Below are positions 14,375 through 62,374 of a DNA stretch of 64,000 nucleotides, in pieces. Under the pieces are notes generated by a model, which was given only the letters and a program-made list of their open reading frames with translations, was not told the origin of the DNA and made no database searches. The stretch comes from Heterodontus francisci (Eukaryota): positions 6,014,001 through 6,078,000 of the forward strand of contig NC_090404.1 of the NCBI RefSeq assembly GCF_036365525.1. The letters run 5' to 3'. How positions within the stretch are numbered: position 1 is the stretch's first letter; every line of letters begins with the position of its first letter. The translations under genes were made by a program, and so were the position numbers.

Positions 14375-14756
14375 NNNNNNNNNNNNNNNNNNNNNNNNNN
14401 NNNNNNNNNNNNNNNNNNNNNNNNNNNNNNNNNNNNNNNNNNNNNNNNNNNNNNNNNNNNNNNNNNNNNNNNNNNNNNNNNNNNNNNNNNNNNNNNNNNN
14501 NNNNNNNNNNNNNNNNNNNNNNNNNNNNNNNNNNNNNNNNNNNNNNNNNNNNNNNNNNNNNNNNNNNNNNNNNNNNNNNNNNNNNNNNNNNNNNNNNNNN
14601 NNNNNNNNNNNNNNNNNNNNNNNNNNNNNNNNNNNNNNNNNNNNNNNNNNNNNNNNNNNNNNNNNNNNNNNNNNNNNNNNNNNNNNNNNNNNNNNNNNNN
14701 NNNNNNNNNNNNNNNNNNNNNNNNNNNNNNNNNNNNNNNNNNNNNNNNNNNNNNNN
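14375..14756. other. Assembly gap (382 N)
   Basis: Run of N. Confidence 1.
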
Positions 14757-19320: not shown

Positions 19321-19366
19321 ATGAGGTCGGCGATTTTTCTCAGTCTGTTGCTGGTTTTCTTACCCC
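19321..19366 (+). CDS. IGHV: IgM VH leader exon (MRSAIFLSLLLVFLP)
   Basis: ATG, hydrophobic signal peptide, phase-1 donor C|GTGAGT, 130-bp intron ending TTTTACAG. Confidence 0.93.
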
Positions 19367-19496: not shown

Positions 19497-19824
19497 GTGT
19501 CCATTCGGATGTCGTGTTGACTCAGCCAGAGGCAGAGACCGGGATTCCCGGTGGCTTCCTGAGACTGACCTGTAAATCCAGCGGGTTCGATATTGGCAGC
19601 CATGGCATGCACTGGGTCCGACAATTTCCCGGGCAGAGGCTGGAGTGGTTGCTTTACTACTATAGTCCATCCAGCAGCAATTATTCCCCAGGGATTGAAA
19701 GTAGATTTACTGCGTCTAAAGACATTTCAAAGAGCATCTTCGCTTTGGACATGAAGAACCTGAAGACTGAAGACACCGCCATCTATTACTGTACAAACAG
19801 CACAATAGCCCGTCTACTATGTAT
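19497..19824 (+). CDS. IGHV: IgM VH exon pre-joined to D-like sequence (germline VD/VDD)
   Basis: [15 protein letters not shown]...LTC...WVRQ...EDTAIYYC then in-frame [10 protein letters not shown]; no 23-RSS after V; followed directly by a 12-RSS. Confidence 0.92.
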
Positions 19825-19852
19825 CACAGCAGTTAACGGCAATACAAAAATC
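19825..19852 (+). other. 12-bp-spacer RSS (D-type 3' signal)
   Basis: CACAGCA + GTTAACGGCAAT (12 nt) + ACAAAAATC. Confidence 0.88.
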
Positions 19853-20172: not shown

Positions 20173-20211
20173 GGTTATTGTGTGGCGCAGGCCGGGGAAT
20201 GCAACACTGTG
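20173..20211 (-). other. 23-bp-spacer RSS of JH
   Basis: GGTTATTGT + 23 nt + CACTGTG immediately 5' of J. Confidence 0.92.
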
Positions 20212-20259
20212 ACTCTATAGCCTACTGGGGACAAGGCACCATGGTGGCGGTGACTGCAG
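20212..20259 (+). CDS. IGHJ: JH segment (SIAYWGQGTMVAVTA)
   Basis: WGQG motif, donor G|GTAAG. Confidence 0.95.
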
Positions 20260-28558: not shown

Positions 28559-28858
28559 CGACACCGTCTCCCCCAACCCTCTACGGCCTGTTCTCCTCCT
28601 GTGAACAACCCAACACCGACAGCTCCGTGGCCTACGGCTGTTTGGCGATGGACTACACCCCTGAAATCACTACCGTTTCCTGGAAGAAAGATAAAGAGCC
28701 GATCACCACTCGATTGAAGAATTACTCGTCAGTGCTGAACAAGAAGGGAACCTACACCCTGAGCAGCCAATTAACCATCACCGAGTCAGAGGTGGGAAGC
28801 AGCAAAATCTACTGCGAGGTTCGACGCGGAGAGTCAGTCTGGATCAAAGAAATTCCAG
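28559..28858 (+). CDS. IGHM: IgM heavy chain Cmu1 exon (locus 1)
   Basis: CCCCAG|CG acceptor; [17 protein letters not shown]...YGCLAMD...WKK...[17 protein letters not shown]; G|GTTAGT donor. Confidence 0.97.
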
Positions 28859-29072
28859 GTTAGTGTTGTGGAAACTGTGAAAAACAAAAAAGCTACAACA
28901 AGCTTGAGTGCAGCCTTGGCTATATCACATTTAGAGCACCATGTACAGTTCTTATCCCTGGAAACTCCAGTTAGTGTCTGCTTGACAGCAAAGAATCTGT
29001 AAAAATATAAGAACAGTTTGCATTATGTATTAATTTCCTCTGCAATAAATGTCTAACATGTATTTTTTGAAG

Positions 29073-29390
29073 ATCTTCAAAATGACATCGTCCATCCAAC
29101 TATTATCCTCACCCTGAGTTCCAGTGAAGAAATCACAAGCAGCAGATTTGCAACTGTCGTGTGTTCAATCATCGATTTCCATCCAGAGTCAATAACCGTG
29201 AGTTGGTTGAAGGATGGACAACCCATGGATTCGGGCTTCGTCACCTCTCCCGCCTGTGAAGCGAACGGGAACTTCTCGGCGACCAGCCGGCTGACTGTCC
29301 CCGCTGGGGAATGGTTCACCAACACGGTCTATACCTGCCAGGTCTTCCATCAAGAGGTCACCCAAAGCCGAAACATCACCGGATCTCAGG
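29073..29390 (+). CDS. IGHM: Cmu2 exon (locus 1)
   Basis: TTGAAG|AT; [10 protein letters not shown]...[20 protein letters not shown]...YTCQV...ITGSQ; G|GTAAG. Confidence 0.97.
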
Positions 29391-30149
29391 GTAAGAGACA
29401 CAAACCGAGGCAGCTCCGGATCATTCTGTGCCCCATGTTAAAGTCAAGATTTTATTGGAATTAGTAAAAAGCACAGAACTGTTACTAATTTACCATCATG
29501 TAGTTTTTTTTGCTTCATTTAGCTATGAGTGCTGAATTAGGATTGCTGACGGTTCAGCATGTCATCACATCACCAAAGAATGTTTCCCTCTGCTTTGATG
29601 TCATACAGTGAGTGAGGTGGCCTTGATTTCAGGTTTATTCTGAGTCGGCTGATGGTATTCGGAGCGGCAATTGGTGTCTGGAACCCTTTACCGGTAACAG
29701 TCTCGGGATCAAGTGCCAGAAAGAGTATCTATCCGATTGAGAAAACTGTTCAATTCTGGGCTCAGGAGGAATATATTGGACCTGGGAGTGGTACAATGCA
29801 GATTCACTGGATTGATAGCGGGGCTGACTAGGTTAAATTATGAGGGCAGTTCTCACAGACCAAACTGTTGCTCCTTTAATTATAGAAGATTAAAGGGTGA
29901 TCTGATTGAATTGTTTTTAAGCTGTTTACTGGAACTAAGGGAGTAGATGGAGAAAAATATTTCCTCTGGTGGAGACCCCAGAACGAATGAAAGCAAGGCC
30001 GTTCAGGGATGATATCAGGAAGGAGCTGTTCACAGGGCGGGTAGCTGAAATCTGAACTTCTCTCGCCCAAATTCGTGTTGAGACTTGGCATCAATTGAAA
30101 ATGTCAATTTTGAGATTGATAGATTTATGTTAGGCAAGGGTATTCAGGA

Positions 30150-31845
30150 TTTTTCCATTCGTTTCATGGGATGTGGGCATCGCTGACAAGGCCAACATTT
30201 GTTGTCCATCCTTGATTTCTCTTGAAGGGGTGGTGGTGGGCTGCCTTCTTGAACTACAGCAGTCCATCTGGTGTGTTAGGGAGGAAGTTTCATGATTTTG
30301 ACCCAATGACAGGTGATATAGTTCCAAGTCAGGATGGTGTGTGACTTGGAGGAGCACTTTCAGATGCTGGTGTGCCCATACGTTTGCTGCCCTTGTCCTT
30401 CTAGGTGGAAGAAGTCGCATACTTGGAACGTGCTGTTGAAAGAGGCGTGGTGAGTTACTGCAGTGCACCTTGTATATGGTACACGTTGCTGCACCATGCG
30501 TCGGTGGTGGAGCGAGTGAATGTTTAAGGTGCCTAAATAGGGTGTCGATCAAGCGGGCTGCTTTGTCCCGGATGGTGTCGAGCTTCCTTAGTATCGCTGG
30601 AGCCGCATTTATCCAGGCAAGTGGAGAGTATTCCATCACATTCCTGACTTGTGTCTTGTAGATGGTGGATCGGCTTTGGGGAGTCAGGAGGTGAGTTACT
30701 CTCTGCACAATTTCTAGCCTCTGACCTGCTCTTGTAGCCACAGTATTTATGTGGCTATAGCTGTTCAATCTCTAGTCAATGTTAATCCCGAGGATGCTGA
30801 TAGTTTGGGATTACGCAATGGAAATGCCACTGAATGTCAAGGGGAGATGGTTAGATTCCCTATTGCTGGAGATCGCCATTGCCTGGCACTTGTGTGGCAC
30901 GAATGTTGCTTGCCATTTATGATCCCTAGCCTGAATGCTGTTAAGGTCTTATTGCAGGACATGGGCTGCATTAGTATCTGAGGAGGTGCGAATGGTACTG
31001 AACATTGTACAATCATCAGAAAACATCCCCACTTCTGACCTTATGACTGAGGGAAGGGCATTGATGAAGCAGCTGAATATGGTTGGGCCTAGGACGGTAT
31101 CCTGACAAACTCCTGCAGCGATGTCCTGGGGCTGAGATAATTGGCCTCCCACAACCACAACCACAACCATCTTCCTTTGCGTTAGGTATGACTCCAACTG
31201 GTGGAGAGTTTTCCCCCTGTTTCCCATTGATTTCAATTTGGCGAGGGCTTCTTGGTGCCACACTCGGTCAAATGCTGCCTTGGTATCAAGGGCGATCACT
31301 CCCGCATCTCTTCTTGAGTTCAGCTCTTTCGTCCATGTTTGCACGAAGGTTGCAAAGAGGCCAGGTGGCATTTGACACTGACAGAACCCAAACTGAGCAT
31401 CAGCGAGTAGATTTTTGCAGTTTAAATGGCACTTGACATCACTTTGCTGATGATCAAGAGTAGACTGACGGGGAGATAGTTGGCCCCTTTAGCCAGTAGT
31501 GGTGTTACCAAGCCACTCTTGGTGATGGACATTGACGTCCCACACCGAGAGAACATTCGGTGCCCTTGCAACCCTCAGTGCTTCTTCCAAGTGGCGTTCA
31601 ACATGGAGGAGTACAATTCAACATCTAAGGGACCGGGCGGTAGGTAGTAATCAGCAGGAGGTTTATTTGCCCATGTTTGACCTAATGCCACGAGAATTCA
31701 TGGGATCTGGAGTCAATGTTGAGGACTCCCAGGGCAATTCCTTCCCGACTGTATACCGCTGTGCCGCCACCTCTGATGAGTCTGTTCTATGGTGGGACAG
31801 GACATGCCTAGGGATAGTGTTGATGGTGTCTGGGATGACATATGT
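30150..31845 (-). mobile_element. CR1/L2-group LINE RT fragment inserted in an older CR1 within the Cmu2-Cmu3 intron (absent from the paralog)
   Basis: ALDTKAAFDRVWHQ...LGPTIFSCFIN...FSDDCTMF; the paralog intron (54430-54970) has the uninterrupted host CR1. Confidence 0.85.
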
Positions 31846-32615
31846 GTAAACAGAATTAAGAAATTAAGATACATATCAATATCAGTCAATTGAATGGTGG
31901 AAATGGCTCGAAGGGCTGAATGGCCTACTCTTTATCCTTTGGTTCTATTACTGCCCTGTGGTCAGATTTCCTTTTGACTCCATACTGACGCATGAGGAGT
32001 ACTCACTCAAGACAGATTTTAGCAAACTACCTCACACCCTGATTACAAATTATTCTGCACCATAAAAAGACTCCTTCGAACCGCAGTTTTCCGACCTATA
32101 ACCCCTCCTTTTACCGGTTCCTGCGCTTTTTCATCTCCACAAATACCGTACAAGGCACCAGAAAATTAACTTTGTTTCCTGTTGCGCCTAAAATTCGGAA
32201 TTTCATTGGACGCTTGTTTGAGGCAGCGTAATTTGCATGTATATCTCGTGCCCTTGGGTGACAGAGCCACTATATTCACCGGAGATGCGATCCAGCGGGA
32301 GCATTGATAGATGGGCAGAAATGAGCCTAGGATTTCAGGAAGAACGTTATTCTGTACGAAACAGAATTGCTTCCGCAATTATTCGGTATTTACGCCGGGT
32401 ACTTGCTTCAAAGCCCATTACAGGTTTCTTTGGGTGTAAGTACACAATACATGTTATAGGATGTCGCAGAAGTTTTTCAAATCATTGCTCTTCTAATAAA
32501 CAATGATGTTTAAGCAAAAGATTTGTTTTTCCTCTCCTGAAAAAAGTGAAGGTTGAATACTGGTGTGCTGATTCTGAAGATGGAGCTTTTCATGACTTCC
32601 ATTTCTGTTTTACAG

Positions 32616-32924
32616 TTCCTTCCTCATGCAATGATCCAGTAATTAAACTACTGCCACCACCAATGGAACAGGTCTTACTGGAGGCGACGGTGACCTTAAC
32701 CTGTGTCGTGTCTAATGCTCCTTATGGAGTCAACGTGTCCTGGACCAAAGAAATGAAGCCTTTGAAATCAAAGATTGCCGTCCAACCCGGAGAGGATCCC
32801 GACAGTGTGATCAGCACCATAAACATCTCGACACAATCCTGGCTGAGTGGGGTTGAGTTCTACTGTGTGGTGAGCCATCAGGATCTGCCGACTCCTCTCA
32901 GAGATTCCATCCACAAGGAAGAAG
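32616..32924 (+). CDS. IGHM: Cmu3 exon (locus 1)
   Basis: TTTTACAG|TT; [15 protein letters not shown]...LTCVVS...[22 protein letters not shown]; G|GTGAAA. Confidence 0.97.
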
Positions 32925-33415
32925 GTGAAAATGAGATTGAAGCAATAAGTGAGAGGTTGTGCTTATTTCTAGTGTTTGTGCAAGGGACAATTAGTCCTTT
33001 TAGGTTGTCTAATGGATTACTGTGATAATTTAATTGTAATTCAACTAACGAAACTCTCTGGAATCATAGGTGATGTATATCAGCAGAAACTAGATAAGTA
33101 GATGATGGAGAAAGGAATAGAAGGAGATGAAGTAAAGTGGGAGGAGGTTCGCATGCAGCTTAAACGCCAGCGCAGACTAGTTGGGTAGTTGGGCCGAATG
33201 GCCTGTTCCTGTGCTGTGAATTCAATGTAATTTTCCAGCTAATCCTTTCAGTTCTCAGCGAGAAGAATTGCATCCGCCTCTGCTCCAGGCTGGAAAACAG
33301 AACAGGTCCCTGGGAGGAAAAGGAAAACCTTTAACATTTCTCTCACATCTAACCACCGGTTTCATTGTCTCTGAAATTCTCCACTTTTTTGATACTTATT
33401 TTAATGTTTCTGCAG

Positions 33416-33807
33416 TTAAAGATCTGCGGGAACCGTCCGTATCTGTCCTCCTGCCCCCGGCAGAAGAAGTCTCCGCTCAGAGTTTCCTCTCCCTCACCTG
33501 CTTAGTGAGAGGTTTCTCCCCCCGAGAGATCTTCGTCAAGTGGACCGTCAATGACAAGTCGGTGAATCCTGGCAACTACAAGAACACCGAGGTGATGGCG
33601 GAGAACGACAATAGCTCCTTCTTCATCTACAGCCTGTTATCCATTGCAGCGGAGGAGTGGGCCAGCGGCGCTTCTTACTCCTGTGTGGTGGGACATGAAG
33701 CGATCCCCTTGAAGATCATCAACAGAACAGTTAATAAATCCAGCGGTAAACCGAGTTTTGTGAACATTTCCCTTGCACTGATGGATACTGTTAATTCATG
33801 TCAATGA
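33416..33807 (+). CDS. IGHM: Cmu4 plus secretory tail; internal donor for the membrane form after 33745 (AGCG|GTAAA)
   Basis: VKDLREPSV...[17 protein letters not shown]...[11 protein letters not shown]...[23 protein letters not shown]; NIS sequon and penultimate Cys. Confidence 0.97.
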
Positions 33808-33835
33808 ACATCTTTGTATTGCATTTCAGTTCGAA

Positions 33836-33841
33836 AATAAA
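33836..33841 (+). terminator. Poly(A) signal of the secreted form
   Basis: AATAAA ~30 nt after the stop, with a downstream GT/T-rich stretch. Confidence 0.75.
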
Positions 33842-34629
33842 AAGGTATTTTGTTCCAACCGTCAGTGGCAACCCACAGCGGTTCAATTAATTTGGTTCCC
33901 TATTTTTGCCAAGAGAAGGGCTGTTCATCTGAAGTAGGGGGTTTGCTTGGAGCAGGCCGAAGTCTTGTGCAGCCAACCTAGATACACCATGGATACGAGT
34001 CAGAGTGACACTATTTCATTACAGGATTCCGCAAAGTAACTTCAGCGACTTTCCTCCCGCTGAAGAGAAACTCGACAGTTCCCAATTTTGATAAAGAAAA
34101 GCAGAGCATTTAGATCCCGGAGTCACTGTTCCGCATGTTGTCCATCACTGCAGAATTAGGGCCAATTTTAATTTTGCAGTGTCACACCCTCTGGGAACTG
34201 AAGTGAGGATCATAAACGAATAGGAACTGTATCCCCACTCCCCCCGAGGGAGACAGGAGAGGGCAATTGTTAATCCACTGTACTCGCATTCTCCCACCAG
34301 AGAGAGGGGAAGTGAACCACTCTATTATATGGATTCAGTTGTGATCAGTTCAAATTCAGCTTGTAACTCACTGTGCGAAGTTTATAGAATTGTGAAAAGG
34401 GAATTATATTATAACATTCATATTTGTACAACGTAATGTTATGAAATCATGTTCGGGGGCACATTTGCCCTTCTTAATCCAAAACTAAAATATTGAATTA
34501 GCATACGCCAAATCTAAACTGATGCTTGAATCACTTTTGGCTCTCTCACGGTTCTCTTTCTGATGTTTATGAGGCTATTCGGTTGAATTGTTGAATTCCA
34601 TCGGCCGATGTCACATTGCATCTCAAAGA

Positions 34630-35740
34630 GAACACATTTACACACAATGAGGAAGAATATTCCCCATAAAGCACATGGTTATTGGTACGTGGCGAAAATC
34701 TGAACAATAGTAAAATTTCATACACAAACGCAAAAACACATATAAAATATTTGCACATAAACACACATATTAACAAAGACACACATATATCAACACATTA
34801 AGAACACGCATAACATTAACTGATTTACACACAAACGCACACATTCGCACACTCACAGCAGCACACAAATAAACATGGGTATTAACGCATACATAAATAC
34901 AGTGAACAAACATACATTAACACAGTCATACAGGCATAAGCACAACACACACATCAATCCACTCACGCTCACACACACACACATACAAACAAACACCCCG
35001 AAATATATAAATGCAACACACTGACATCCTCAAATACACACATGGACACGCAGCCACGTTCGTAAACACACATAGGCACACTGAAAAACGGACGCATTAA
35101 CAAATTCACACAAACGTAAACACACAGTCACGTACCTCAACACACACACACATAAACAGAATGATGAACATCCCCATTTACACGATCATATATACTCATT
35201 AACACAATAAACACTCATTCTATTGTTACCTCATAAACAAGTGGCCACACAAAGTCAAATATCAACGAACGACACAACAGGCATGGACAACGAAACGCAC
35301 TCATAAACAAACACGCTCACACATACATGGACCCACACATACACAAGCATACACGTTAACACACACACATAAAAGGACACGCAAGCGCACACATAAACAA
35401 ACACACGGACAGACACCCAAACGCACACATAAACATTCATCTTCTTGGCATTTCTTCGTGGATGAACATTTTAGGAAGGTTTCGCTCATGGGTTGCAGGC
35501 CCGCTGGTGGCTAGTCAGGCCTAGCCGTGACCGCAACACATAAACACTCAAGAACACACGTTAACATACACACAGTAAAAGGACTCAACTAGACACATTA
35601 ACACACTCATGGCCACACAAACACACACATTATCACGCTCGCGCACATAAATGGACTCACAAAGACAGAAAAAAGCAAAGCACGAGATAGACATGCACAC
35701 ATTAAAACACGGATACAAAAGCACCACATGATACACCTAT
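34630..35740 (+). repeat. Degenerate (CA)n-rich tract, interrupted by a ~100-bp insertion (~35437-35535)
   Basis: CA-rich low complexity; ACACATAAACA duplicated on both sides of the insert. Confidence 0.85.
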
Positions 35741-36322
35741 GTAGAATTAAATTATACTTTATGATTGAGCGAAGTCTCCAACAATTGCCCTAAATAAATA
35801 ATTTCTGACACCATAATATTTCACTGGTCTTTATGCCGGTGCTAAAACACACTGAAAAAATGTTCTCAGTTAAAAACTGATACAAGTTAAAGCTGTTCAT
35901 TGGATTTCCACCATAGGATTTGAACCATCAGCCGATTCTCAATCAGCATCCTTGACGGTCTCCAACTAAGTTGCTATCGAAACATAACGCATGCATGATC
36001 TATATCCAATCAGCTACCTCACCTTAATATTCACGAATGTTAGATTGTCCGAGATTAACCCAAAATAAATTAGCGTCTGACAACAAAGAAAAAAATAAAT
36101 AAGATTTTCCAGCACGAAATGTATGAGGATCTTAAAGGAAGAACGGTTGTGGTATCAGGAACAGGCTGAGAGTCATTCATTTAAAGCCAGATATACATTG
36201 AAGATTAAATTACAGAACAAAATGGTATCTCAGAGAAATTATAAGAAAACAGAATATAATAATTATATGAAATCCTGGATTAATAAACGACCTGAATATA
36301 TTTCCTCCTCAACACCCTGTAG

Positions 36323-36450
36323 GTTCCTCCGGCCACGTCTGGATTGAAGACTATGAAGAAGAAAGATGCAACATCAGGACAGCCACGTCCACATACATCA
36401 TCCTGTTCCTCCTGAGCATATTCTACAGTGTTGCCCTCACTCTGGTGAAG
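36323..36450 (+). CDS. IGHM: TM1 exon copy A (intact, divergent)
   Basis: CTGTAG| acceptor; (G)SSGHVWIEDYEEERCNIRTATSTYIILFLLSIFYSVALTLVK; |GTGAG donor; 128 nt, in phase with the Cmu4 donor. Confidence 0.88.
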
Positions 36451-37055
36451 GTGAGAAGATTCGATCCACTCGCACCCACAAGAGCCTGGGGTCCATCTGA
36501 CACATTCACACTGGGAAGTAGTGAGCCTGGTAATCATTCAAAGTGTTTGAGGCCTATCTGATAAAGCAGGGAGCAAAGATCTTGTGAATGATACCCAGAG
36601 TCTGGGGACTACTGGACTGATAGACTCTCTCTTTCCCATTTCTGTTATAGAAGACGGAACGATGAACAGAAAGACTGTATCTGAGGGAGAGGGGATGAGG
36701 GATAACACATTATATGCATGTACATTTGGAAGGTTCATCTCCCTAACATTGCCAGAAACAGTTTGTGTGAAAGCTGGAAAAAGTGAAATTCTGACAGAAT
36801 AACATTTATATTTGTATAGGGAGTGGGGCCCTGCTCTCGGGCAGGAAAAGTGTAGAAAGCATTTTCCTTTTGAATGAGTTCCTTCGAAGGATCCCGAGTC
36901 CAAATGGACCACACAGACTGAAGACACGAATAGTCTGCGCTAGAGTAATCACTTCCAACACTTCAACATCTCGGCAGCACTAATTAAGCCTGACTCTGTC
37001 TGCTGCTTCCTTGACAACATTTCTCTATGTTCTGAGACATTTTCTCTGATACGAT

Positions 37056-39378
37056 CTGAACATCAACCCAGGCATCATCTCTCCCTGCTCCATTCCCTCT
37101 GAAACCATTTCCCTGAACTCATTGAATATCACCCCAGGAATCCTCTCTCCCTGCTTCATTCCCTATGAAACCATTTCCCTGAACTCATTGAATATCATCC
37201 CAGGGATCCTCTCTCCCTGCTTCATCCCCTATGAAACCATTTCCCTGAACTCACTGATAATCACCCCAGGCATCGTCTCTCCCTGCTCCATTCCCTATGA
37301 AACCATTTCCCTGAACTCACTGAACATCACCCCAGGCATCGTCTCTCCCTGCTCCATTCCCTCTGAAACCATTTCCCTGAAATCACTGAACATCACCCCA
37401 GGCATCCTCTCTCCCTGTTCCATTCCCTCTGAAACCATCTCCCTGAACTCACTGAATATCACCCCAGGGATCCTCTCTCTCTGCTTCATTCCCTATGATA
37501 CCATCTCCCTGAACTCACTGAACATTATCCCAGGGATCCTCTCTCCCTGCTTCATTCCCTATGAAACCATTTCCCTGAACTCACTGAACATCACCCCAAG
37601 CATCGTCTCTCCCTGCTCCATTCCCTATGAAACCATTTCCCTGAACTCACTGAACATCACCCCAAGCATCGTCTCTCCCTGCTCCATTCCCTATGATACC
37701 ATTTCCATGAACTCACTGAACATTACCCCAGGGATCCTCTCTCCCTGCTCCATTCCCTCTGAAACCATTTCCCTGAACTCACTGAACATTACCCCAGGGA
37801 TCCTCTCTCCCTGCTCCATTCCCTATGAAACCATTTCCCAGAACTCACTGAACATTACCCCAGGGATCCTCTCTCCCTGCTCCATTCCCTATGAAACCAT
37901 TTCCCTGAACTCACTGAACATTACCCCAGGGATCCTCTCTCCCTGCTCCATTCCCTCTGAAACCATTTCCCTGAACTCACTGAACATTACCCCAGGGATC
38001 CTCTCTCCCTGCTCCATTCCCTATGAAACCATTTCCCAGAACTCACTGAACATTACCCCAGGGATCCTCTCTCCCTGCTCCATTCCCTCTGAAACCATTT
38101 CCCTGAACTCACTGAACATTACCCCAGGGATCCTCTCTCCCTGCTCCATTCCCTATGAAACCATTTCCCAGAACTCACTGAACATTACCCCAGGCATCGT
38201 CTCTCCCTGCTGCATTCCCTCTGAAACCATCTCCCTGAACTCACTGAACATCACCACAGGCATCGTCTCTCCCTGCTCCATTCCCTATGATACCATCTCC
38301 CAGAACTCACTGAACATTACCCCAGGCATCGTCACTCCCTGCTCCATTCCCTCTGTAACCATTTCCCTGAACTCACTGAACATTGCCCCAGGCATCGTCA
38401 CTCCCTGCTCCATTCCCTCTGTAACCATTTCCCTGAACTCACTGAACATTACCCCAGGCATCGTCACTCCCTGCTCCATTCCCTCTGTAACCATCTCCCT
38501 GAACTCACTGAACATTGCCCCAGGCATCCTCTCTCCCTACTTCATTCCCTATGAAACCATTTCCCTGAACTCACTGAACATTGCCCCAGGGATCCTCTCT
38601 CCCTGCTCCATTCCCTATGAAACCATCTCCCTCAACTCACTGAATATCGCCCCAGGCATCGTCTCTCCCTGCTCCATTCCCTATGAAACCATTTCCCTGA
38701 ACTCACTGAACATTACCCCAGGCATCGTCTCTCCCTGCTTCATTCCCTATGAAACCATTTCCCTGAACTCACTGAACATTACCCCAGGCATCGTCTCTCC
38801 CTGCTTCATTCCCTATGAAACCATTTCCCTGAACTCACAGAACATTACCCCAGGCATCGTCTCTCCCTGCTTCATTCCCTATGAAACCATTTCCCTGAAC
38901 TCACAGAACATTACCCCAGGCATCGTCTCTCCCTGCTTCATTCCCTATGAAACCATTTCCCTGAACTCACAGAACATTACCCCAGGGATCCTCTCTCCCT
39001 GCTCCATTCCCAATGATACCATCTCCCTCAACTCACTGAATATCGCCCCAGGCATCGTCTCTCCCTGCTCCATTCCCTATGAAACCATTTCCCTGAACTC
39101 ACAGAACATTACCCCAGGGATCCTCTCTCCCTGCTCCATTCCCAATGATACCATCTCCCTGAACTCACTGAGCATCACCCCAAGGATCCTCTCTCCCTGC
39201 TTCATTCCCTATGAAACCATTTCCCAGAACTCACTGAACACTACCCCAGGGATCCTCTCTCCCTGCTCCATTCCCTATGAAACAATTTCCCTGAACTCAC
39301 AGAACATTACCCCAGGGATCCTCTCTCACTGCTCCATTCCCTCTGATACCATCTCCCTGAACTCAATAAACATCACAG
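37056..39378. repeat. 66-bp minisatellite, about 35 copies
   Basis: Unit ~CTGAACTCACTGAACATTACCCCAGGGATCCTCTCTCCCTGCTCCATTCCCTATGAAACCATTTCC. Confidence 0.97.
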
Positions 39379-39675
39379 GAGGAATATGCCAGTGACCAGC
39401 AGATCGTCCCTCCCTGTGACCCGAAAGTTTTGATCCACCTGTTTCAAGTCATCGATTTTATTTGATGCCTCCTGACCTGGGGGATATCCGCAGACGCTTT
39501 TAGAGTTAGAAATAGATATAGACTGATGTAATTAACTCAATGGATGTACATTGAAAAATAAATTAGGGGAAAAATAATATTTCAAGTAAAATAAAAAAGT
39601 ATATCAAATTATAGTAATATGATATCTTTGGTTAATAAAAAACCTGAATATATTTCCTCCGTTACATCCCTGTTG

Positions 39676-39802
39676 ATTCCTCAGACCACATCTGGAATGA
39701 AGATAATGAGAAAGCGAGTGGCAACATCTGGGCAACCGCTTCCACATTCATCATCCTGTTCTTCCTGAAAATTTCCTACAGTGCTGCCTCACTCTGGTGA
39801 AG
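39676..39802 (+). pseudogene. IGHM: TM1 exon copy B (acceptor AG->TG, 1-bp deletion)
   Basis: CTGTTG|ATTCC; DSSDHIWNEDNEKASGNIWATASTFIILFFLKISYSAA then frameshift to SLW*; 127 nt versus 128. Confidence 0.88.
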
Positions 39803-39931
39803 GTGAGAATATTCACACTTCAATCGGACTGAGGCCGTTTCACAAATGTCTGAAATTATCATTGATGAAAACCTGAACAAATTGCCCCTGAACATTAAAT
39901 CACTGCTTCATTCTTTATCCCTCTTTTACAG

Positions 39932-39940
39932 GCCAAATGA
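39932..39940 (+). CDS. IGHM: TM2 exon coding part (AK*)
   Basis: CTCTTTTACAG|GCC AAA TGA, 129 nt after the TM1-B donor. Confidence 0.8.
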   Translation, partial: AK

Positions 39941-40381
39941 TCGATTGGATTTCGGAAGCTGTGGATTTTTCTTTATCAATATTTCTGCATTAAGAATATA
40001 AAATATGTTGTTTTGGTAATTCTCAAAGTTAAATACCTTCAGTTAACCGATCCGAATCCACCGCTGAGACAAAAGGAAAACACAAATTCCAACATTCTGT
40101 TTGAAAAATGTATTCATGTGTGAGATAATCGTAGCTATAATGTTTCACAGTTGCTTGAATATTTCCGATGCATATAAGTAAAGTTTCTCATTGCTTATTT
40201 ATACTTATCCCATTCCCTTTATGGTGAGTCCTTGTTTTCTCTCTCTGGTCTGTTACAGTTGTCCAGAGAGATGGAAGCTCAGCCCGCTTGTATTCTGTTC
40301 TCAATGTGACGCTCAGTTGTTATATTCACTTGGTGTTAACTTTTAAAATTTTCCCTCGGGATTGCTCTCTGTCAAATTGTT

Positions 40382-40387
40382 AATAAA
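40382..40387 (+). terminator. Probable poly(A) signal of the membrane form
   Basis: First AATAAA seen after TM2, followed by T/GT-rich sequence. Confidence 0.6.
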
Positions 40388-41039
40388 TCTGGAATGGCAA
40401 ATGGGCAAACTTCCATTTTGTGGATTTTTTTTTCTCTCCAAGGCTACTCCTCACTGTTCCATTTTCCCGTTTGCAGTTCACTTTATTTCTCTGCCAGGTA
40501 TTTTTCACCTGCTTTGTTTGAGTAAATTATGAACACAAGTCCCTATTGGTCAATGAGCTAGGGCGCCATTCAATGATCCAACAAAGCAAAGACACCTCCC
40601 CCTTCATGAGTCAGAAGGTGCACAACGAGCAGGCGCACCTCCCAGTCTACTCTGATATTCTACATTGTAGCAGTCAGTATTAAAGAGCAGGGCTCTGATC
40701 CATCACAGCCTGATATAAGGCAGCACATTGCTGATTAAATTTCTATTTATACTGTATCATCAAATATTTACAAGGCAGGCACAGCACAGTTTAGGTGTCG
40801 GATGCAGACACAACTGGAAGCACAAAACCTGGGAGTGATCCCTGGAGACTCGAGCCTATGAGGCACAGAGACACGAACACACATAAAACCTTGGAATGAT
40901 TCATAGAATTTGTACCTGAATTCACGCAGCATTCGCAAAAAGATAGATGGTTTAAAGGTACAAATAGAGGTAAATGGGTACGATCTAATTTCCATGACGG
41001 AAACGTGGCTACAGGGTGACCAAGACAGGGAACTGAATT

Positions 41040-53348: not shown

Positions 53349-53394
53349 GAAATAGGCACAACCTCTCACTTATTGCTTCAATCTCTCCGCTCAC

Positions 53395-53703
53395 CTTCTT
53401 CCTTGTGGATGGAATCTCTGAGAGGAGTCGGCAGATCCTGATGGCTCACCACACAGTAGAACTCAGCCCCACTCAGCCAGGATTGTGTCGAGATGTTTAC
53501 GGTGCTGATCACACTGTCGGGATCCTCTCCTGGTTGGACGGCAATCTCAGATTTCAAAGGCTTCTGTTCTTGCATCCAGGACACATTGATGCCATAAGGA
53601 GCATTAGACACGACGCAGGTTAAGGTCACCGTCGCCTCCAGTAAGACCTGTTCTATTGATGGTGGCAGTAGTTTAATTACTGGATCATTGCAGGAACAAG
53701 GAA
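53395..53703 (-). CDS. IGHM: Cmu3 exon (locus 2; no Cmu4 downstream)
   Basis: [19 protein letters not shown]...SIHKEE; AG/GT intact; 309 nt. Confidence 0.93.
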
Positions 53704-55314
53704 CTGTAAAACAGAAATAAAAGTCAAACAAAGATTCATCTTCAGAATCAGACACCAATATTCAGCCTTCACTGTCTCTAGGAGAATAAATCAACTTCGA
53801 GATATCGACCTCAAGCTGTTGCTCAAATAATATCGTTTATTGGAAGGACAACAACCTGAAAAGGCTTCCGGGAGATTCTATAACATATACTGTGTACTTG
53901 CACCCTAAGAAGCCTTTATAGGCTTTGAAGCAAGTACCCGCCGTAAAAATCGAATAATTGAGGGAGAAATTGTGTGACGCACGAAACAATGTTTTTTCTG
54001 AAATTCCTGGCGGAACAGGCTCGAGGGGCCGAGTGGCCTACGACTGCTCCTGTTATTTCCGCCCGTTTATCGGGCTTTGCGCTGGATCACATTTCCGTTG
54101 ATTATAATGGCTCTGCCTCCCAAGGACACGAGTTATATATCTAATTCACACTGGCTCAAAACGGGTGTCAAATGAAATTCCGAATTTTAGGCCCAATAGG
54201 AAACAAAGTTAATATTCTGGCGCCTTGTCACGATATTTCGGGTGTTGAAAATATGTTGGAACCAATCAGAGGAGAGGTGGAAGGTCGAGAAAATGCAGTT
54301 TCAGTGAGTCTTTTTGAGGCGGAGAATAACTTTCAATAATGGTGTGAGGCAGTTTGCTAATATATGTCGTGAGGGAGAACTCCTCATGTGTCAATCTCGA
54401 GTCAGAAGGCATTCTGCTCAGAGGGCAGTAATAGAAACATAGGAAAACTGAGAAGGCCATTCAGCCCGTCGAGCTTATTCCACCATTCAATCAGACAATG
54501 GCTGATCTGTATCTTTGTACCGTCTACCCATAGGTAACCCTTAACACCATTGCCTAACTTCAATCTATCAATCTCAACATGAAAATAGTCAATTGATGCC
54601 AAACTTCAAGAGCGAGTTGAGGGAGAGAATTCCAGATTTCCGCTACCCACTGTGTGAATAGCTTTCCCGATATCATCCCTGAATGACATTGGTCTAATTT
54701 GAAGGTTATGCCCCCTTGTTCTGGAGTCGCCCACCAGAGGAAATATTTTTCTCCGTCGACTCCATCAATTCCAGTAAACATCTTAAACACCTCAATTAGA
54801 TCACCCTTTAATCTTCTATACTCAAAGGAATACCAGTTGGGTCAATGAAACCTGTCCTCTTATTTAACCCGTTCAGCCCCACTATCATTCTAGTCAATTT
54901 GTGTTGCATCACTCCCAATGCCAATATATTCTTCTTGAGCTCATGAGTCCAGAATTGAACACAGTTTTCTAAATAGGGAGGATGCTCTTTCTGACACTTG
55001 ATGCCGAGGCTATTACCTGGAAAGGTTTCCAGACACCTATTGCTGCTATCAGCCAAATCACGATAATCCTGATATCAAGGCCACCTCACTCATGAAATGA
55101 CATCAAAGCAGAGGGAAACATTCTTTGGTGATGTGATGACATGTTGAACAGTGAGCAATTCTAATTCAGCACTCACAGCGGATTGAGGCATACAACTACA
55201 CGATGGCGAATTGGAAAAATATTCAGTGCTTTGTAATAATTCCAATAAATTGTTACGTTTGATTATCATTGGAGCACAAAATGATCTGGAACTTCCTGGG
55301 ATTGTGTCTCTTAC

Positions 55315-55632
55315 CCTGAGATCCGGTGATGTTTCGGCTTTGGGTGACCTCTTGATGGGAGACCTGGCAGGTATAGACCGTGTTGGTGAACCATTCCCGA
55401 GCGGGGACTGTCAACCGACTGGTCGCTGAGAAGTTCCCGTTCACTTCACAGGCAGGAGAGGTGACGAAGCCCGAATCCATGGGTTGTCCATCCTTCAACC
55501 AACTCACGGTTATTGACTCTGGATGGAAATCGATGATTGAACACACGACAGTTGCAAATCTGCTGCTTGTGGTTTCTTCACTGGAAGTCTGGGTGAGGAT
55601 AACAGTTGGATGGACGATGTCACCTTGACAAT
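55315..55632 (-). CDS. IGHM: Cmu2 exon (locus 2)
   Basis: [15 protein letters not shown]...ITGSQ; AG/GT intact; 318 nt. Confidence 0.93.
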
Positions 55633-55841
55633 CTTCAAGAAAAACATGTTAGACATTTCTGGAAGAAAGTAATAACTAATGCAAACTATTCTAATAATTT
55701 TACAGGTTCCTTGCTGTCAAGCAGACACTAACTGGAGTTTCCAGGGATCAGAACTGTGCACTATACTCTAAATGTGATATAGCCAAACCTCTACACAAGA
55801 TCACGATAGCTTTTCTGTTTTTCAGTTTCCACAACACTAAC

Positions 55842-56138
55842 CTGGAATTTCCTTGATCCAGAGCGACTCTCCGCGTCGAACCTCGCAGTAGATTTTGCTT
55901 CTTCCCACCTCTGACTCGGTGATGGTTAACTGGCTGCTCAGGGTGTAGGTTCCCTTCTTGTTCAGCACTGACGGATAAGTCTTCAGCCCAGTGGTGATCG
56001 TCTCTTTATCTTTCTTCCAGGAAACGCTGCTGATTTCGGGGATGCAGTCCATCGCCAAACAGCCGTAGGCCATGGAGCCGTCGGTGTTGGGTTGTTCACA
56101 GGAGCACAGGCCGTAAAGTGTTGGGGGAGACGGTGTCG
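55842..56138 (-). CDS. IGHM: Cmu1 exon (locus 2)
   Basis: [16 protein letters not shown]...WIKEIP; AG/GT intact; 297 nt. Confidence 0.93.
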
Positions 56139-59100
56139 CTGGGCAAGAACGACAGATTGAACAAGTTAGACTCTGTGATTCATGATTATTAACCAGACAA
56201 CTCGGAATTTCACTCCAGCTAGAAACTGATTCCAATATCTTCCGCTTAAAACCTTCATCCGCATTTGAGCTTCTATCAGTTCCATCATTTGCTGATCATC
56301 ACATGCCGGTCCCCTGGTCAGGAACACACCTCTCTTTCAGGACCTGTTACATTACAAAAGTAAGAGCCTTTTGACGCCATCTCAGTGAAGTATCTTTTAT
56401 TAGATTAAACTGGAAGTGGAGTTTCCCCGCTAATCCGACCAGTATTTATTTCTGAACCAACAGCACTTCGCCAAAAATAAAACACTCAGCATTTATTAAT
56501 TGCAATTATTGGAAATTTTCTCTCTGCAAATAGCTTGCTGGGTTCCCCCACCCCACCACTCCGTCCCCACCCCCAGCGCCCATCACCCCGCTCCCATCCA
56601 CTTCCCCACCTCCAACCCCCACCCCCCGGAAAATAGCGACTGCTATTTAAAAGTGCCATCTGTTATTCTAATAGGTGCTTATAAAAATGTGCTTAAAACT
56701 CGAAACTTGATTACCAGGCAAAGTAATTCCACTATTTTCTCATAAAAACCTAGAACAAATCCTAGCATGTTCATGACCCAGGCTTATCAAACAATAAAAA
56801 TAATAGCAGAGAAGGAGGCCATTCGGTCCATCAAACCTGTGAAAGATGACTCCAGCGATCCCGCTGACCTTCCAATTCCTAATCTTCTTTTCAAAAGTTC
56901 CATTTTATCCAGCTATTTTAGATTCTATTTACAGCCCTCTTTCTGATAGGACATTCCAGATCCTAACAACCCCCTGTGTAGAAGAGTAGATTCATACCCT
57001 CTTCCTTCATTCTTTTGACGCTGATTTTAAATCAGTGCCCTCCACAGACCAACTCACTGATCTGGGGAAATTGGTTTCTGAATTTCTGTATAAAATATTC
57101 ATTATTCAAAACACCTCTACCAGACTTCATTTTAATCTTCTATGTTCCCATAACAATAAATATCTTTTACAATAAATAGTTGAAGTCTCCTTTAAAATAT
57201 GGACTGAATCATTTAGTACACAGATTTCAGAGGGGAATTTTCCACAACCTAGTTTCTGGAATTAAAACTTTGGACGACTCGGCATTGACTCCAGACTACC
57301 ACTTTCCTTCTCAGTACTTGTGGATTGCGATTTGTGTTCTATCTTTACTGAATGGATCTCTCCCGAGTTTAATTCTCCCTCCAACTCAATTAATAATCCG
57401 AATTAAATCCGATTCCAAAAAATCGGTCATCTGGAATGATGTTCTTGAAAAGGTCCATTTAATTTTTCAAAGTATCTTCCCACCCCTCACCAGTGAGAAC
57501 TGGTGTTGCTGACTGTGCTGTTACAGCCACCTCTTCTTGCTGCTTGCACCGATCATAATGTGATCAGGACAGGCTCCTTCTATAAATATCTGATATTGAC
57601 ATCACTTACACATTATACATCGAGTGAATACATCGAGGTTCCAGGCAAGGAAGGACAAAAGTTCCTGAAGTGTTATTGCTGACATGGTCAACTCTCACTT
57701 CTGGTTTGTGTGGACAATTCAAACACCTGCAATTTATTGATCAGGTATTGAAAGCTCGCTCACCAATATAGTGTAAAAGATTGTCGATGTTGATGGCGCA
57801 GAAGTAGGAGATATGGGCTTTCAAATGGCAAGAGATAATATACCACATAAGAGAACATTTGGAAAATAGAAGCGAATAGATTAAAGGGATGGTGGTTACC
57901 TGCTAAGATATAGGAAGCAAAGAGAGACGGTGAACCAATGCTTTTCTGACTAAAAAGAATTAACTATTGTGATCCCCTTGCTTGGTCAGAGGGTCATTGT
58001 TTTTTTTTGTTAAGTACAATGAGGTGGACTTGAGCACCTGACTACTATATTTAGTAGTCTTTGTACATGGACATCTCTTTGGACTGCCATTGTTCTTAGC
58101 TTTCTCGTGATACATGGATCTATCCTTTATTGGCCCAAATAGGACGATGCCAGACTCACCTGTGTTGAAATCCATCTGCCACAGTTTTGTCCAATCACTT
58201 AATCTGTCAATGTCTCTGTAATTTTATGTGTCCGTCTATACTACTCATTGCACCACCAATCTTTGTGTCATTGATAAACCTGAATTGATGTCGAAGTTCG
58301 AGGATGATACAAAACAAATAGTGAGCAGGATAGTAACAGGGTTCAGGAGGACATAGACAGAGTGGTGAAATGTTCAGTGACACAGTAGATGCAATTTAAT
58401 GCGGATAAGTGTGAAGTGTAATCTGAAGGTAATGTAATCGAAATGGCACTATTTTGAAGGGGGTAAAAAAGTAGAGGGGCCTGAGGTGCATATTCACAAT
58501 GTTATGAAGGCGGTTAAGAAAGCAACTTGGTCTTGTAAAATGGATTATTGAATAAAAAAACAAGGAAGTCAGGTTAAAGCTTTACAAATCACTGATTAGG
58601 CTGGAGTATCTTTTGCACAATTCTGCACATCACACTTCCGGAAGGATGTCACGGCTTTGGGGAGAGTGCAGAGGGAGTTTACCAGGATTATGTCAGAAAT
58701 GAGGGAGTTCAGTTATATAGAGTGATTATACAAGTCGAATTGATCTCATTAGGCGGTCACCGAATAGATATATTCAAAATTTTGGGATGTCTTGATGTAG
58801 CAGATAAGGAGAAATTGTTTCCTCTGGCAAGTGGGTCAGTGGCAAAATAAATAACTGGCAACAAAATGGAGTGTGGGCGGGGTGGTGTCTGCAGAAGGAG
58901 GTTTGTTTACTGATAGACGGTGGTTTTCATAGAACCATAAATTGGCTACAGCACAAAAGGAGACCATACGACCCATCGTATCCATGCAGGCTCACTGCAA
59001 AGTGAGCCCGCATCTGGAATGCACAAGGCAACCGGACACGTCCTCGAAGGAGACTAATTTGCATGGTTATGAGGAAAAAACTGGCTTGTAGGATTAAATT

Positions 59101-62100
59101 GGAGAGTTCTCAGAGCTAACACAGGCTTGACGGACCGAATGGCCGCATTCTGTGCTATAAGATTCTTTGATTCTACCCGACTCAGTAGAATTTGGTTCTT
59201 CCAAATTTAATGGGAGGAAAGGCTTCATTAATTTGAACATCTCTGTGACATACATTTTTATTGCTTGTTATATGAAAGAGGATTTTTAAAATAAGAGGAT
59301 CGGAAGGATTTAGTACAAATGAGTCAATCAGATACTGTCAGAGACTTAAAGCTTATTGTGATTGGCATTGATTTCAGGCTAACTGTATCACTTCAAAAGC
59401 TACCCTCTGCTGTGACCCAGTCCAATAACTGCATCTCACCAGAGTTTATCGCTGCCTGTTACCTTTTGAAAATACTTGAACGAAATAATGGTCTCAAACA
59501 TGAGATTATCATGGTTATTTGGAGCAGGATTCTCGACTTTTCTCCATTTAAATCGCCAAAAGAACTTCCAGCCTCCCATCAGATCAGAACAGGTGCTGTT
59601 CTCTGGAATGTTACAGTCACTTCTTGAAACTGTTTGTTTTGAAAGTTCACTCAAGATCAGGCCAATCTCATTCAGTTCCTATCTGATACTTAACATGTTT
59701 TAAAATTATTAATTCATTAAAACTTGGTTTTGAATGAATAGTAAAATCAATTAATGTGCGTTGTTTCATCTGGGCAATGGAACAATTTATTTTCATATAT
59801 CTGGGTCGAGAACTCACAGTTTATGAGTTAGATGCAGATTAAGGATCTTTGAACATTGTGAGGGAAACACTCAGGTCAGGTACAGGAAAGTTAAGTTATA
59901 GAGTAAAGACCCGCTTGTCCGGCCCTGTCAGGAGCTGTAAGGTCAGACATCGCAAATGTTATATTCCGGGGAAAGCCACCTCTATACTTCACTGTCACTC
60001 TGGGTCAGGTACAGCACTAGTTTAATATAAAATAAAGCTCCCTCTACGCAGTCCCATCAAATACATCCAGGACAACTTCAACCCGGTTTAGATACAGAGT
60101 AATGTCTCCCTCTACACTGTCCACATCAAACAGACCCAGGACCGTTACAGCATGGATTAAATATACAGTAAAGCATTGCCAATCAAATATTCAAGGGAGG
60201 TACATTACTGATTGCAAACTGACCAAAGCTCCTTCCACGTCTGTCTGCCCTGTCTCTGAACTGGCATTACTGATTGTCACAGACTGGAATACTGATCTCA
60301 TTGCTGAGGCGCCTCATCAAACTTAAAGTCAAAATTTCACTTTTCTCCCAGATTCAAGTTTCTTAAATAAATGGATCAAGTTGCACTCCCTGAAATGCAG
60401 GAGAATGAACCAGAAGGTTTACGATCAGTCGGGAGGACTCAGTGAGCAGGCGCACAGGAACAAATGGTGAAACCATGGGGTTCTCAGCAGCTAGATCTGT
60501 TCAATCTGTCAATTTCAATGTGAAATTGCAACCACTCCAAGTCTGTAAGATCTTTGAAATTAAATTGAAATTCATTTCAAAAACTCCCTTCGACTTCCTA
60601 CTGTTTCTTCCTGTGTGGCTGCAATCTTAAAAACATAAGATATAGTTTCCTGTAAAATGAATACATTGAAACAATTTATTTTCAGGAAAATTTGATGTCC
60701 TTAACAGCAGCTCAGTGACAGAGTAAGCATTTAGAAAATTAGGAGACATTTATCTTGCAAACCGATTACCCACTGGTTTGATACAATTTCAGAATTAAAC
60801 GTTACCAAAAAAATAATTGAAGCAATGCTCAAAGTTAATTCATTAAAATCTGCGGCGGCACCTTATCGAGCTGAGAACAGCTGAGTAAGAAATGTATTGT
60901 TCTCAAAATTATTTTTAGACGTAATTCACAATTCTCTCCGGCCCTTGAGATTTTGCACTTATTGGAATCCTGGCAATTATACTACTGAATTGTGGGAGGT
61001 CATTTATGTTTAATGAATTAGCACTATTATATTTTAGGCTAATATCCATGTCAGTTGATTTTATATTGTATTTCTTTTAAAAATAGGTAATATCAATTCC
61101 AGACTTGTTTCTTCCGGGTACCTTGTGAAATAATTGGGTTTTAATTAAATTATTATGACACTTAATCAATATTAAAAAATAATCATATTAATAGATGAAA
61201 ACATTCAGACAAATGTATTACTTTCACTGAAATCGAATCGCAGTTCAATCATTTAAAATGAGCAATAATTTCTACTCCCATCCTGTTTTCTATCTACAAA
61301 CTTGTAAACTGCGCATGTATCTGAATGTGTTGATATATCATGAACTCCATCTATTCTCAGCGAGTATTTCGCATGATGGAATTAGGAGTGGAATATTTTC
61401 AAAATTCCAAGCCTGGCCGGCGTCACATCTCACTAACTGTCGATGGGCTGTAACATTGCTTGTTTGTGAAAGCAGGACTCCTGTATTTTAAATATTATCA
61501 TAAATCTTAACTAGATAAAAAAAAAACTCCCAGGTAGTTTGTCATCACGATGTTTTAATATTTTACGCCCGTAATTAACACAATCCCTGCAAATTAATTG
61601 TTAAACATTTTGTGTTTTTTATTGAAAAAAGTTCCAAAACGATCACTGTCAAACTGGACAAGAACAATTCTTTCAGATCATCTACGGCAGTGAAAATTAA
61701 TGGGAAAATATAGCTGAGATTTTGTTGACCAATTTAACAGTTAAGAATTCAGCATAACTCTCTGGTATAATCTGTTCTTTACCTATAATACTTTCCTATG
61801 TGAAGCACAGTTATCAGAGACAAGATGTTGTTATTAAATTCAAAACTATTAACCTTTTGTAAGTAAATGAATCTGCTTGAATTTCAAGGTGTTATTTGTC
61901 TGTGTCTAGCCTTACACAGTCTGCAACTTTCTTCGATTTAAATAAAATCATCGGAACAATCCTTTGACTGCCAGCGACTTCTACCTCTCAGGAAAATATT
62001 TAACTTAGATTAATGATAATTATCTCGCTATCCAACAACACATGGCATTGAAGGAAGAACATGGTTTGGGCTTCACGCAAAGAATGTAATAACCAGACAG

Positions 62101-62374
62101 ATATATTACTCTGACAAACTGCAATTTACAACTCCTGTTTAAGTTATAAGTAAATACAAGCTGCCATTCCTCTGTTTTAATCAGGAATATACCAATTAAT
62201 TCAAAAGTGCTCATCAAACTGAACACAGCGGTGGAATCAATGTCTTCTTGTTGAAATAATTTCAAGCTAAATTAAAAATTATCGCCAACCCAGAATTGTG
62301 AAAGGCGTTTAATGAATAATGAATCGATGTTAATATTGAAGCATATCTGTTTTCTTTTATTAGGAGATATTGCC
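56139..62374 (-). other. J-C intron of locus 2, homologous to locus 1 ~22110-28558
   Basis: Colinear shared blocks, e.g. GAAGTCGCTGGCAGTCAAA, AAATGACCTCCCACAATTCAGTA, GTTCTGATCTGATGGGAGGCTG. Confidence 0.88.

Follow-up and report, generated by a model that had tools for sequence, protein, structure and literature searches.

Two copies of the first membrane exon in an IgM heavy-chain cluster of Heterodontus francisci, with a possible new receptor tail

We analysed a stretch of 64,000 nt of the Heterodontus francisci genome (NCBI RefSeq assembly GCF_036365525.1, contig NC_090404.1, positions 6,014,001 to 6,078,000 of the forward strand), hereafter called the window, whose first letter is position 1. 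It holds one complete immunoglobulin M (IgM) heavy-chain cluster on the + strand, with leader, V, J, four constant exons (Cmu1-4), a secretory tail and transmembrane (TM) exons. The first TM exon (TM1) is present in two copies, an upstream one (TM1-A) and one next to the second TM exon (TM2), which we call TM1-B and which carries lesions in the assembly. The frame from J to TM1-A is open, and one RNA contig leaves the genome sequence exactly at the TM1-A donor. Tentatively, and with somewhat less than even confidence, we read the locus as an open IgM cluster with a tandem TM1 duplication, in which TM1-A would be the likely anchor and would likely be joined to TM1-B for a tail of 27 residues.

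The two copies of TM1

The features of the membrane region are the following.

36323..36450, + strand: TM1-A, the upstream divergent membrane exon, intact; spliced at its donor in record 15 of run X5
37056..39373, no strand assigned: 66-bp tandem array of 35 copies between TM1-A and TM1-B (TRF, 92% matches)
39676..39802, + strand: TM1-B, the copy in the ancestral position, no longer an anchor (acceptor reads TG, one bp deleted, core with Lys and Ser) but with its donor preserved
39685..39768, + strand: computed 27-codon frame that would follow TM1-A, entered by a putative shifted acceptor of TM1-B (AG at 39683-39684)
39932..39940, + strand: TM2, Ala-Lys-stop; next AATAAA at 40382

Two TM1 copies were obtained in the window by tblastn. 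Aligned to each other with BLASTN they are 77% identical over 274 nt (E 2e-55), with 102 of 128 letters alike in the exon and 98 of 132 in the 133-nt upstream flank, in agreement with an earlier sequence-only reading of this locus (made from the letters, with no database searches), which had claimed two TM1 homologs with shared upstream intron sequence. By BLAST, the homology of the flanks reaches about 135 nt upstream and 12 nt downstream, with none found farther out. The sole TM2-like exon in 36451-41000 is that at 39932, and a TM2 of TM1-A's own, which that reading had not seen either, was obtained neither by pattern nor by BLAST.

TM1-A has a TAG acceptor, a GT donor and an open frame, in phase 1 to 0, and the chain from J through Cmu1-4 and TM1-A to TM2 is a single open frame of 480 codons with GT/AG at every splice site. 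It aligns to mouse IgM without gaps and, on the mouse numbering, has Cys at E447, Arg at W450, Ala at T452 and Tyr at F456, hence all of the Cys, Trp-to-Arg and Phe-to-Tyr changes noticed from the letters; the acidic connecting peptide, N448 and the Y466-S467 (YS) motif are kept. Within its membrane core TM1-A has four changes, none of which brings in a charge, and the core is an uncharged run of 19 residues with a hydropathy of 2.25, against 1.59-2.14 in nine reference tails (P0006, P0008, P0010, P0012, P0016, P0026, P0075, P0098 and P0099). Judged from its sequence, TM1-A is the only exon here able to supply a membrane anchor.

Neither the Cys, nor the Arg, nor a long tail is present in any of the nine elasmobranch membrane tails retrieved (0 of 9 for each). 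The Trp is present in seven of them, and both exceptions represent one old Heterodontus sequence that is shorter there by two residues. This published TM peptide (P0006/P0099) is without Trp and two residues short, and the RNA contigs in runs X5-X7 (see below) have the Trp codon; an early sequencing error may lie behind the Trp-less peptide. Searches with the A peptide gave no record of an A-type protein among longer proteins (15 candidates, none scored) or near-length proteins, and of seven HMMER matches the four inspected were ordinary TM tails, which is weak evidence with a query so short. According to the portion available of a structural preprint (bioRxiv 2022.08.13.503858), T452 belongs to an outer polar network with CD79, and AlphaFold gave inconsistent placing of the membrane IgM helices.

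TM1-B, whose start resembles the TM of P0006, has TG at 39674-39675 where AG is expected and is 127 nt long, so that both the mutated acceptor and the 1-bp deletion claimed from the letters were found; its frame stops 2 nt before its own donor, and its core also has Ser-to-Lys and Phe-to-Ser changes. The first AG past its pyrimidine tract lies 9 nt downstream of the old acceptor, in frame, and scores like the acceptor of TM1-A (both with 15 of 20 pyrimidines, YAG and a 70-nt AG-free zone). TM1-B can no longer work as an anchor; as an exon it is probably still usable, since this shifted AG is good and the donor is intact. Joining Cmu4 to the shifted site would give a truncated peptide with Lys in the core and no tail, and joining TM1-A to it would give 27 codons of the other frame with a stop at 39766-39768, 34 nt before the TM1-B donor. 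The predicted tail of 27 residues (39685-39765) includes a basic cluster and a single Cys but is without Tyr, hence it would carry no tyrosine signalling motif.

We counted 11 acceptor candidates in 36451-40400, two of them in the read-aligned stretch and without a joint, and five within the array. The acceptor of TM2, with 17 of 20 pyrimidines, is stronger than any other in the region, and the shifted AG of TM1-B has the longest AG-free zone among the candidates not starting with G and ranks first among those of them outside the read-aligned stretch. The array is pyrimidine-rich on the + strand, with five weak acceptor-like sites. Regarding TM2 itself, the window has Ala-Lys-stop, and the expressed TM2 in X5 and X6 is Val-Lys-stop.

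Splicing of TM1-A in RNA

Sequencing runs were searched with positions 36250-36520, and 13 runs were listed, five of them with shared words: four DNA runs of one sample (shared-word scores of 0.80-0.92) and X5, which has another organism label (0.20). The four DNA runs are probably of the assembled animal and therefore not independent of it. None of the five is recorded as RNA, and the RNA-like character of X5 emerged on alignment. Four of the 13 runs (X4, X5, X6 and X7) were aligned to 33380-37030 at 80% likeness, and the rows displayed covered 32 of the 12,988 pieces, 40 of the 178 letter rows and 24 of the 209 loose ends. X5, X6 and X7 behave as RNA; X6 and X7 share the sample with the DNA, and X6 is very deep in IgM. 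In X5, precisely, the intron is covered only at a repeat, and Cmu3 letters stand at the start of Cmu4.

Record 15 of X5 (165 nt, depth 3.5) fits 36328-36450 in 122 of 123 letters, with one change at 36366 (Arg to Ser), and keeps the Cys, Arg and Tyr codons together with the copy-private letters of TM1-A. Past 36450 it goes on with 42 letters unlike the intron. Because it leaves the genome exactly at the donor, we consider that the TM1-A donor is used and that TM1-A is spliced in this related sample. The possibility that A-type exons are never spliced and are degenerate in all paralogs, raised with the sequence-only reading, does not hold for this A-containing contig.

The same alignment bears on the partner exon. 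The common-type TM contig in X5 (depth 418.6), whose own TM2 begins with GT, fits as far as 36452, hence the aligner extends through matching letters. The fit of record 15 goes no further than 36450, which makes a partner with an initial G unlikely. The first letter of TM2 is G, both in the window and in X5 and X6; that of TM1-B is A at either acceptor. From this one letter and from the quality of the acceptor, TM1-A likely joins TM1-B via the shifted acceptor and not TM2 directly. Such a joint would go unlisted, since the first 42 nt of TM1-B are like TM1-A in only 31 of 42 letters, below 80%.

The sequence-only reading had proposed that TM1-A is a working anchor with a new extracellular Cys, spliced directly to TM2 over 3.5 kb with skipping of TM1-B, for a tail of Lys-Ala-Lys. 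As to the anchor this agrees with our results, TM1-A being by its sequence the sole anchor-capable exon and its donor being used in RNA; moreover, the frame of a direct joint is perfect and it would use the strongest acceptor of the region. The 36450 to 39932 junction itself did not fare so well: a TM2 starting with G would fit at 36451, where record 15 misfits, TM1-B has kept its donor and a good shifted acceptor, and nothing was found that forces its skipping. We hold the direct joint to be unlikely.

In the reading that we favour, TM1 would have been duplicated without TM2, and Cmu4 would splice to TM1-A, with which its phase fits. Two phase 1-to-0 exons with no exclusion device would both be included, TM1-A providing the anchor and TM1-B, via the shifted acceptor, a 27-residue cytoplasmic tail from the other frame, after which TM1-B would splice onward to TM2. 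With the stop 34 nt before the last junction, the message would escape nonsense-mediated decay under the 50-55 nt rule. The anchor frame of TM1-B would have decayed because it was no longer read, and the protein would be made and reach the surface with CD79. Splicing and function are separate questions, and a joint of TM1-A to TM1-B could be real with no working receptor. That the locus represents a small subclass of horn-shark IgM clusters with a new B-cell receptor, having an anchor with an outer Cys (from TM1-A) and a 27-residue tail (from TM1-B), independent of mammalian IgG and IgE, is accordingly a more demanding claim, which we regard as rather improbable; the feature is confined to a few of many clusters.

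It had also been suggested that the pair is a relic of mutually exclusive TM exons. A regulated pair, present or past, would look like this, with two homologous exons in tandem that agree in length and phase. Exclusion is known to be brought about by a very short intron, by mixed spliceosome types or by decay of the double form. In this case the copies are spaced by 3.2 kb, both are of GT-AG type, and the double form would escape decay by the 50-nt rule, so that we found no exclusion mechanism; in addition, TM1-B cannot encode an anchor, and in none of the clusters seen were both copies intact. We give this explanation hardly any credence.

The DNA contigs of X4 bear on the lesions of TM1-B and on other copies of TM1-A. 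If the lesions were assembly errors or one rare allele, TM1-B would be the normal anchor and TM1-A a spare. TM1-B is outside the read-aligned stretch, so its lesions rest on the assembly, and long reads typically err in this way, dropping one bp from a short run of C. Against such an explanation, TM1-B is damaged in at least four separate places, of which three (TG, Lys and Ser) are substitutions, and the window sequence nearby is found in X4 at a depth of about 7 (records 2, 4 and 7) with 0-1 differences over 304-1563 nt in these same-sample contigs. We judge it very unlikely.

Other X4 contigs, at depth 12-16 (records 5, 6 and 8), match the TM1-A flanks at 89-97%, including the downstream flank that is absent from TM1-B. 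The leftover depth for the window letter was 7-9 at the Gly1, Val6, Arg15 and Cys16 sites, and 20-22 at the Trp-to-Arg, Thr-to-Ala, Ala-to-Val and Val-to-Leu sites, where read depth is to be taken as depth and not as copy number. Apparently there is at least one more A-like copy with the membrane changes and without the Cys, and the Cys seems private to the window copy and its X5 counterpart, not general to A-like copies.

In X6, the expressed common-type TM1 begins in at least four different ways at the Cmu4 joint (36323-36333), therefore the connecting peptide varies between clusters. Record 24 of X6, a common-type TM1 contig (depth 1713), has a letter other than the usual G at the place of the Cys codon of TM1-A (36367), which would make the residue Ser or Cys.

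Selection or drift in TM1-A

We compared TM1-A with the common expressed TM1, counting 17 differences (one further difference, in record 16, was left outside the count). Neutral substitutions were also simulated. With 17 of them, 9-32% of runs kept the open frame and both splice sites, and 1-3% kept YS and a clean core in addition; with 12 substitutions the values were 19-47% and 4-10%, respectively, under criteria picked after inspection of the sequence.

Several points weigh against a selected, working TM1-A joined to TM1-B. The 17 differences are 12 replacement and 5 silent, with no departure from the neutral expectation (p 0.33), and the dN/dS of TM1-A against TM1-B is 0.9; this ratio, asked for together with the sequence-only reading, could thus be computed and gives no sign of purifying selection (the regional values of 0.43 in the spacer and 1.72 in the membrane part come from 6 silent changes, too few to read). 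The X5 copy is 99% identical, hence selection had little additional time to become visible in it. TM1-A is without Trp450, Thr452 and Phe456, residues conserved from shark to mouse. The second frame of TM1-B, open for about 30 codons, would be a by-product of the TM1 sequence, so that its openness is no sign of selection. As to the RNA, the step from TM1-A to TM1-B is read from one letter and the behaviour of the aligner, and TM2 of the X5 organism may start otherwise; the A transcript is one contig in one of three RNA-type runs, with a depth (3.5) that is less than 1% of that of the common TM contig (418.6); record 15 starts 5 nt inside TM1-A, so the joint of Cmu4 to TM1-A is not seen in it; and all four listed Cmu4-to-TM1 joints, all of X6, have common-type starts. 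No A-type contig was among the displayed X6 and X7 rows, which we did not count as evidence, as contigs drop rare forms.

Much of this is what would be expected if the locus were a neutral relic, with both TM1 copies decaying, TM1-A open by chance, residual splicing and no working membrane receptor (the cluster being silent or secreted only). The replacement and silent changes are neutral in TM1-A and likewise in TM1-B (8:2, with two hard lesions), conserved residues have been lost, the sole A contig is of low depth, and an open frame with splice sites survives drift in 9-47% of simulations. On the other hand, the remainder of the gene is intact, TM1-A is transcribed and spliced, and none of its core changes is charged and YS is retained, a combination found in 1-10% of neutral runs. 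Furthermore, TM1-A is lesion-free at 17 letters from the common type, and TM1-B, only about 11 letters off, has the two hard lesions plus the Lys. We regard the relic as a real, if somewhat doubtful, possibility, only slightly less likely than the reading that we favour; if TM1-A is only drifting, the locus is an ordinary example of birth-and-death evolution among the many copies of a gene family.

The surrounding cluster and known systems

The other exons of the cluster, with recombination signal sequences (RSS), are the following.

19321..19366, + strand: leader exon, with ATG and GT donor, open together with V
19497..19824, + strand: VH exon, germline-joined to D-derived sequence, open frame; 12-spacer RSS at 19825
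20212..20259, + strand: JH, with 23-spacer RSS upstream (heptamer end at 20211)
28559..28858, + strand: Cmu1, 85% to P0006, intact splice sites
29073..29390, + strand: Cmu2, match to P0006, splice sites checked
32616..32924, + strand: Cmu3, match to P0006, splice sites checked
33416..33807, + strand: Cmu4, 94.5% identical to P0006, with internal donor after 33745 and secretory tailpiece to 33807

The leader and V have 87 of 114 amino acids identical to an expressed leader and V of H. francisci (P0094), and the constant exons are 76-95% identical to its membrane form P23088 (P0006). Cmu4 has a poly(A) signal at 33836, and its internal donor is at the same place as that used in X6 with common-type TM1 starts. 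The cluster is of VD-J type: V runs directly into D-type sequence, and the 12-spacer RSS at 19825 faces the 23-spacer RSS of J at 20211. No 23-spacer RSS of V was found by the RSS scan at up to 3 mismatches to the consensus. With the germline VD in open frame and the 23-spacer RSS of J 360 nt on, only the D-to-J join is left to make; partly germline-joined (VD-J) shark clusters are described in the portions available of two reviews (PMC4279169, PMC5192425).

Over 33484-33735, Cmu4 differs from the high-depth common type of X4 in 2 of 252 letters, vs 17 of 128 for TM1-A, and looks homogenised or strongly conserved. Three cysteines (early in Cmu1 and at the starts of Cmu2 and Cmu3, 28559-32924) are absent here and present in P0006 and in an inverted neighbour; the same three are largely absent from P0003 and P0012 too. 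That the new Cys of TM1-A offsets a lost inter-chain bond might be speculated. The inverted neighbour is a partial second IgM cluster on the minus strand (53349-62353), with J-C intron homology and Cmu1-Cmu3 in open frames, 91-96% identical in nucleotides to the first; the likeness ends shortly past Cmu3, and no Cmu4, TM, V or J matches of it were found within the window. The window also has a 33-bp tandem array at its start (1-925), an assembly gap of 382 N upstream of the leader (14375-14756) and, in the intron between Cmu4 and TM1-A, a CA-rich degenerate tract (34720-35720) with a high-copy element (35440-35533) that is also in RNA contigs.

The cluster is built as an elasmobranch IgM minicluster and as the H. 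francisci membrane IgM, with V-D-J and leader, four Cmu exons, and a Cmu4 with secretory tailpiece and internal donor to TM1 and TM2. It differs in having two TM1 copies with one TM2, where a minicluster has one of each; the two-TM1 state is a variant feature, and the label of IgM stands. We found no paper describing a tandem pair of TM1 exons in shark IgM within the full-text literature searched, most subscription papers being outside it, so that absence from print is not established; protein database searches gave no such arrangement either.

Across the shark and mouse tails compared, the membrane segment of IgM and the three residues of its tail are alike, and they count among the most conserved parts of adaptive immunity. 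A natural variant at Trp450, Thr452 and Phe456 with a border Cys, and possibly with a long tail, would test which residues are needed for CD79 assembly. If our favoured reading is true, the locus would also give a one-step route to a new receptor tail, namely to duplicate a phase 1-0 exon and include both copies, the second out of frame without decay.

Against the mouse IgM B-cell receptor (PDB 8E4C, 8EMA), TM1-A shares the gapless alignment and the kept residues described above, and differs at E447, W450, T452 and F456, with a predicted tail of 28 residues vs 3. The shark IgW and IgNAR forms with multiple TM versions are similar in that membrane immunoglobulin is diversified by splicing (Rumfelt 2004, PMID 15240702; PMC5192425), but, in the portion available of PMC5192425, they vary the number of C domains before one TM exon, not the TM exon or the tail. 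In tandem exon duplication-derived substitutions (PMC8373072), the exons are likewise homologous and in tandem; here only one copy codes for the homologous peptide, and double inclusion is likelier than exchange. Finally, in human IgE, as far as the available part of PMC2119292 goes, the splice variants CH4-M1'-M2 and CH4-M2' also obtain a new C-terminus by a shifted acceptor and another reading frame, the frame-shifted form being without anchor and secreted. They involve no exon duplication, whereas in the window the anchor would come from TM1-A and the tail from its dead duplicate.

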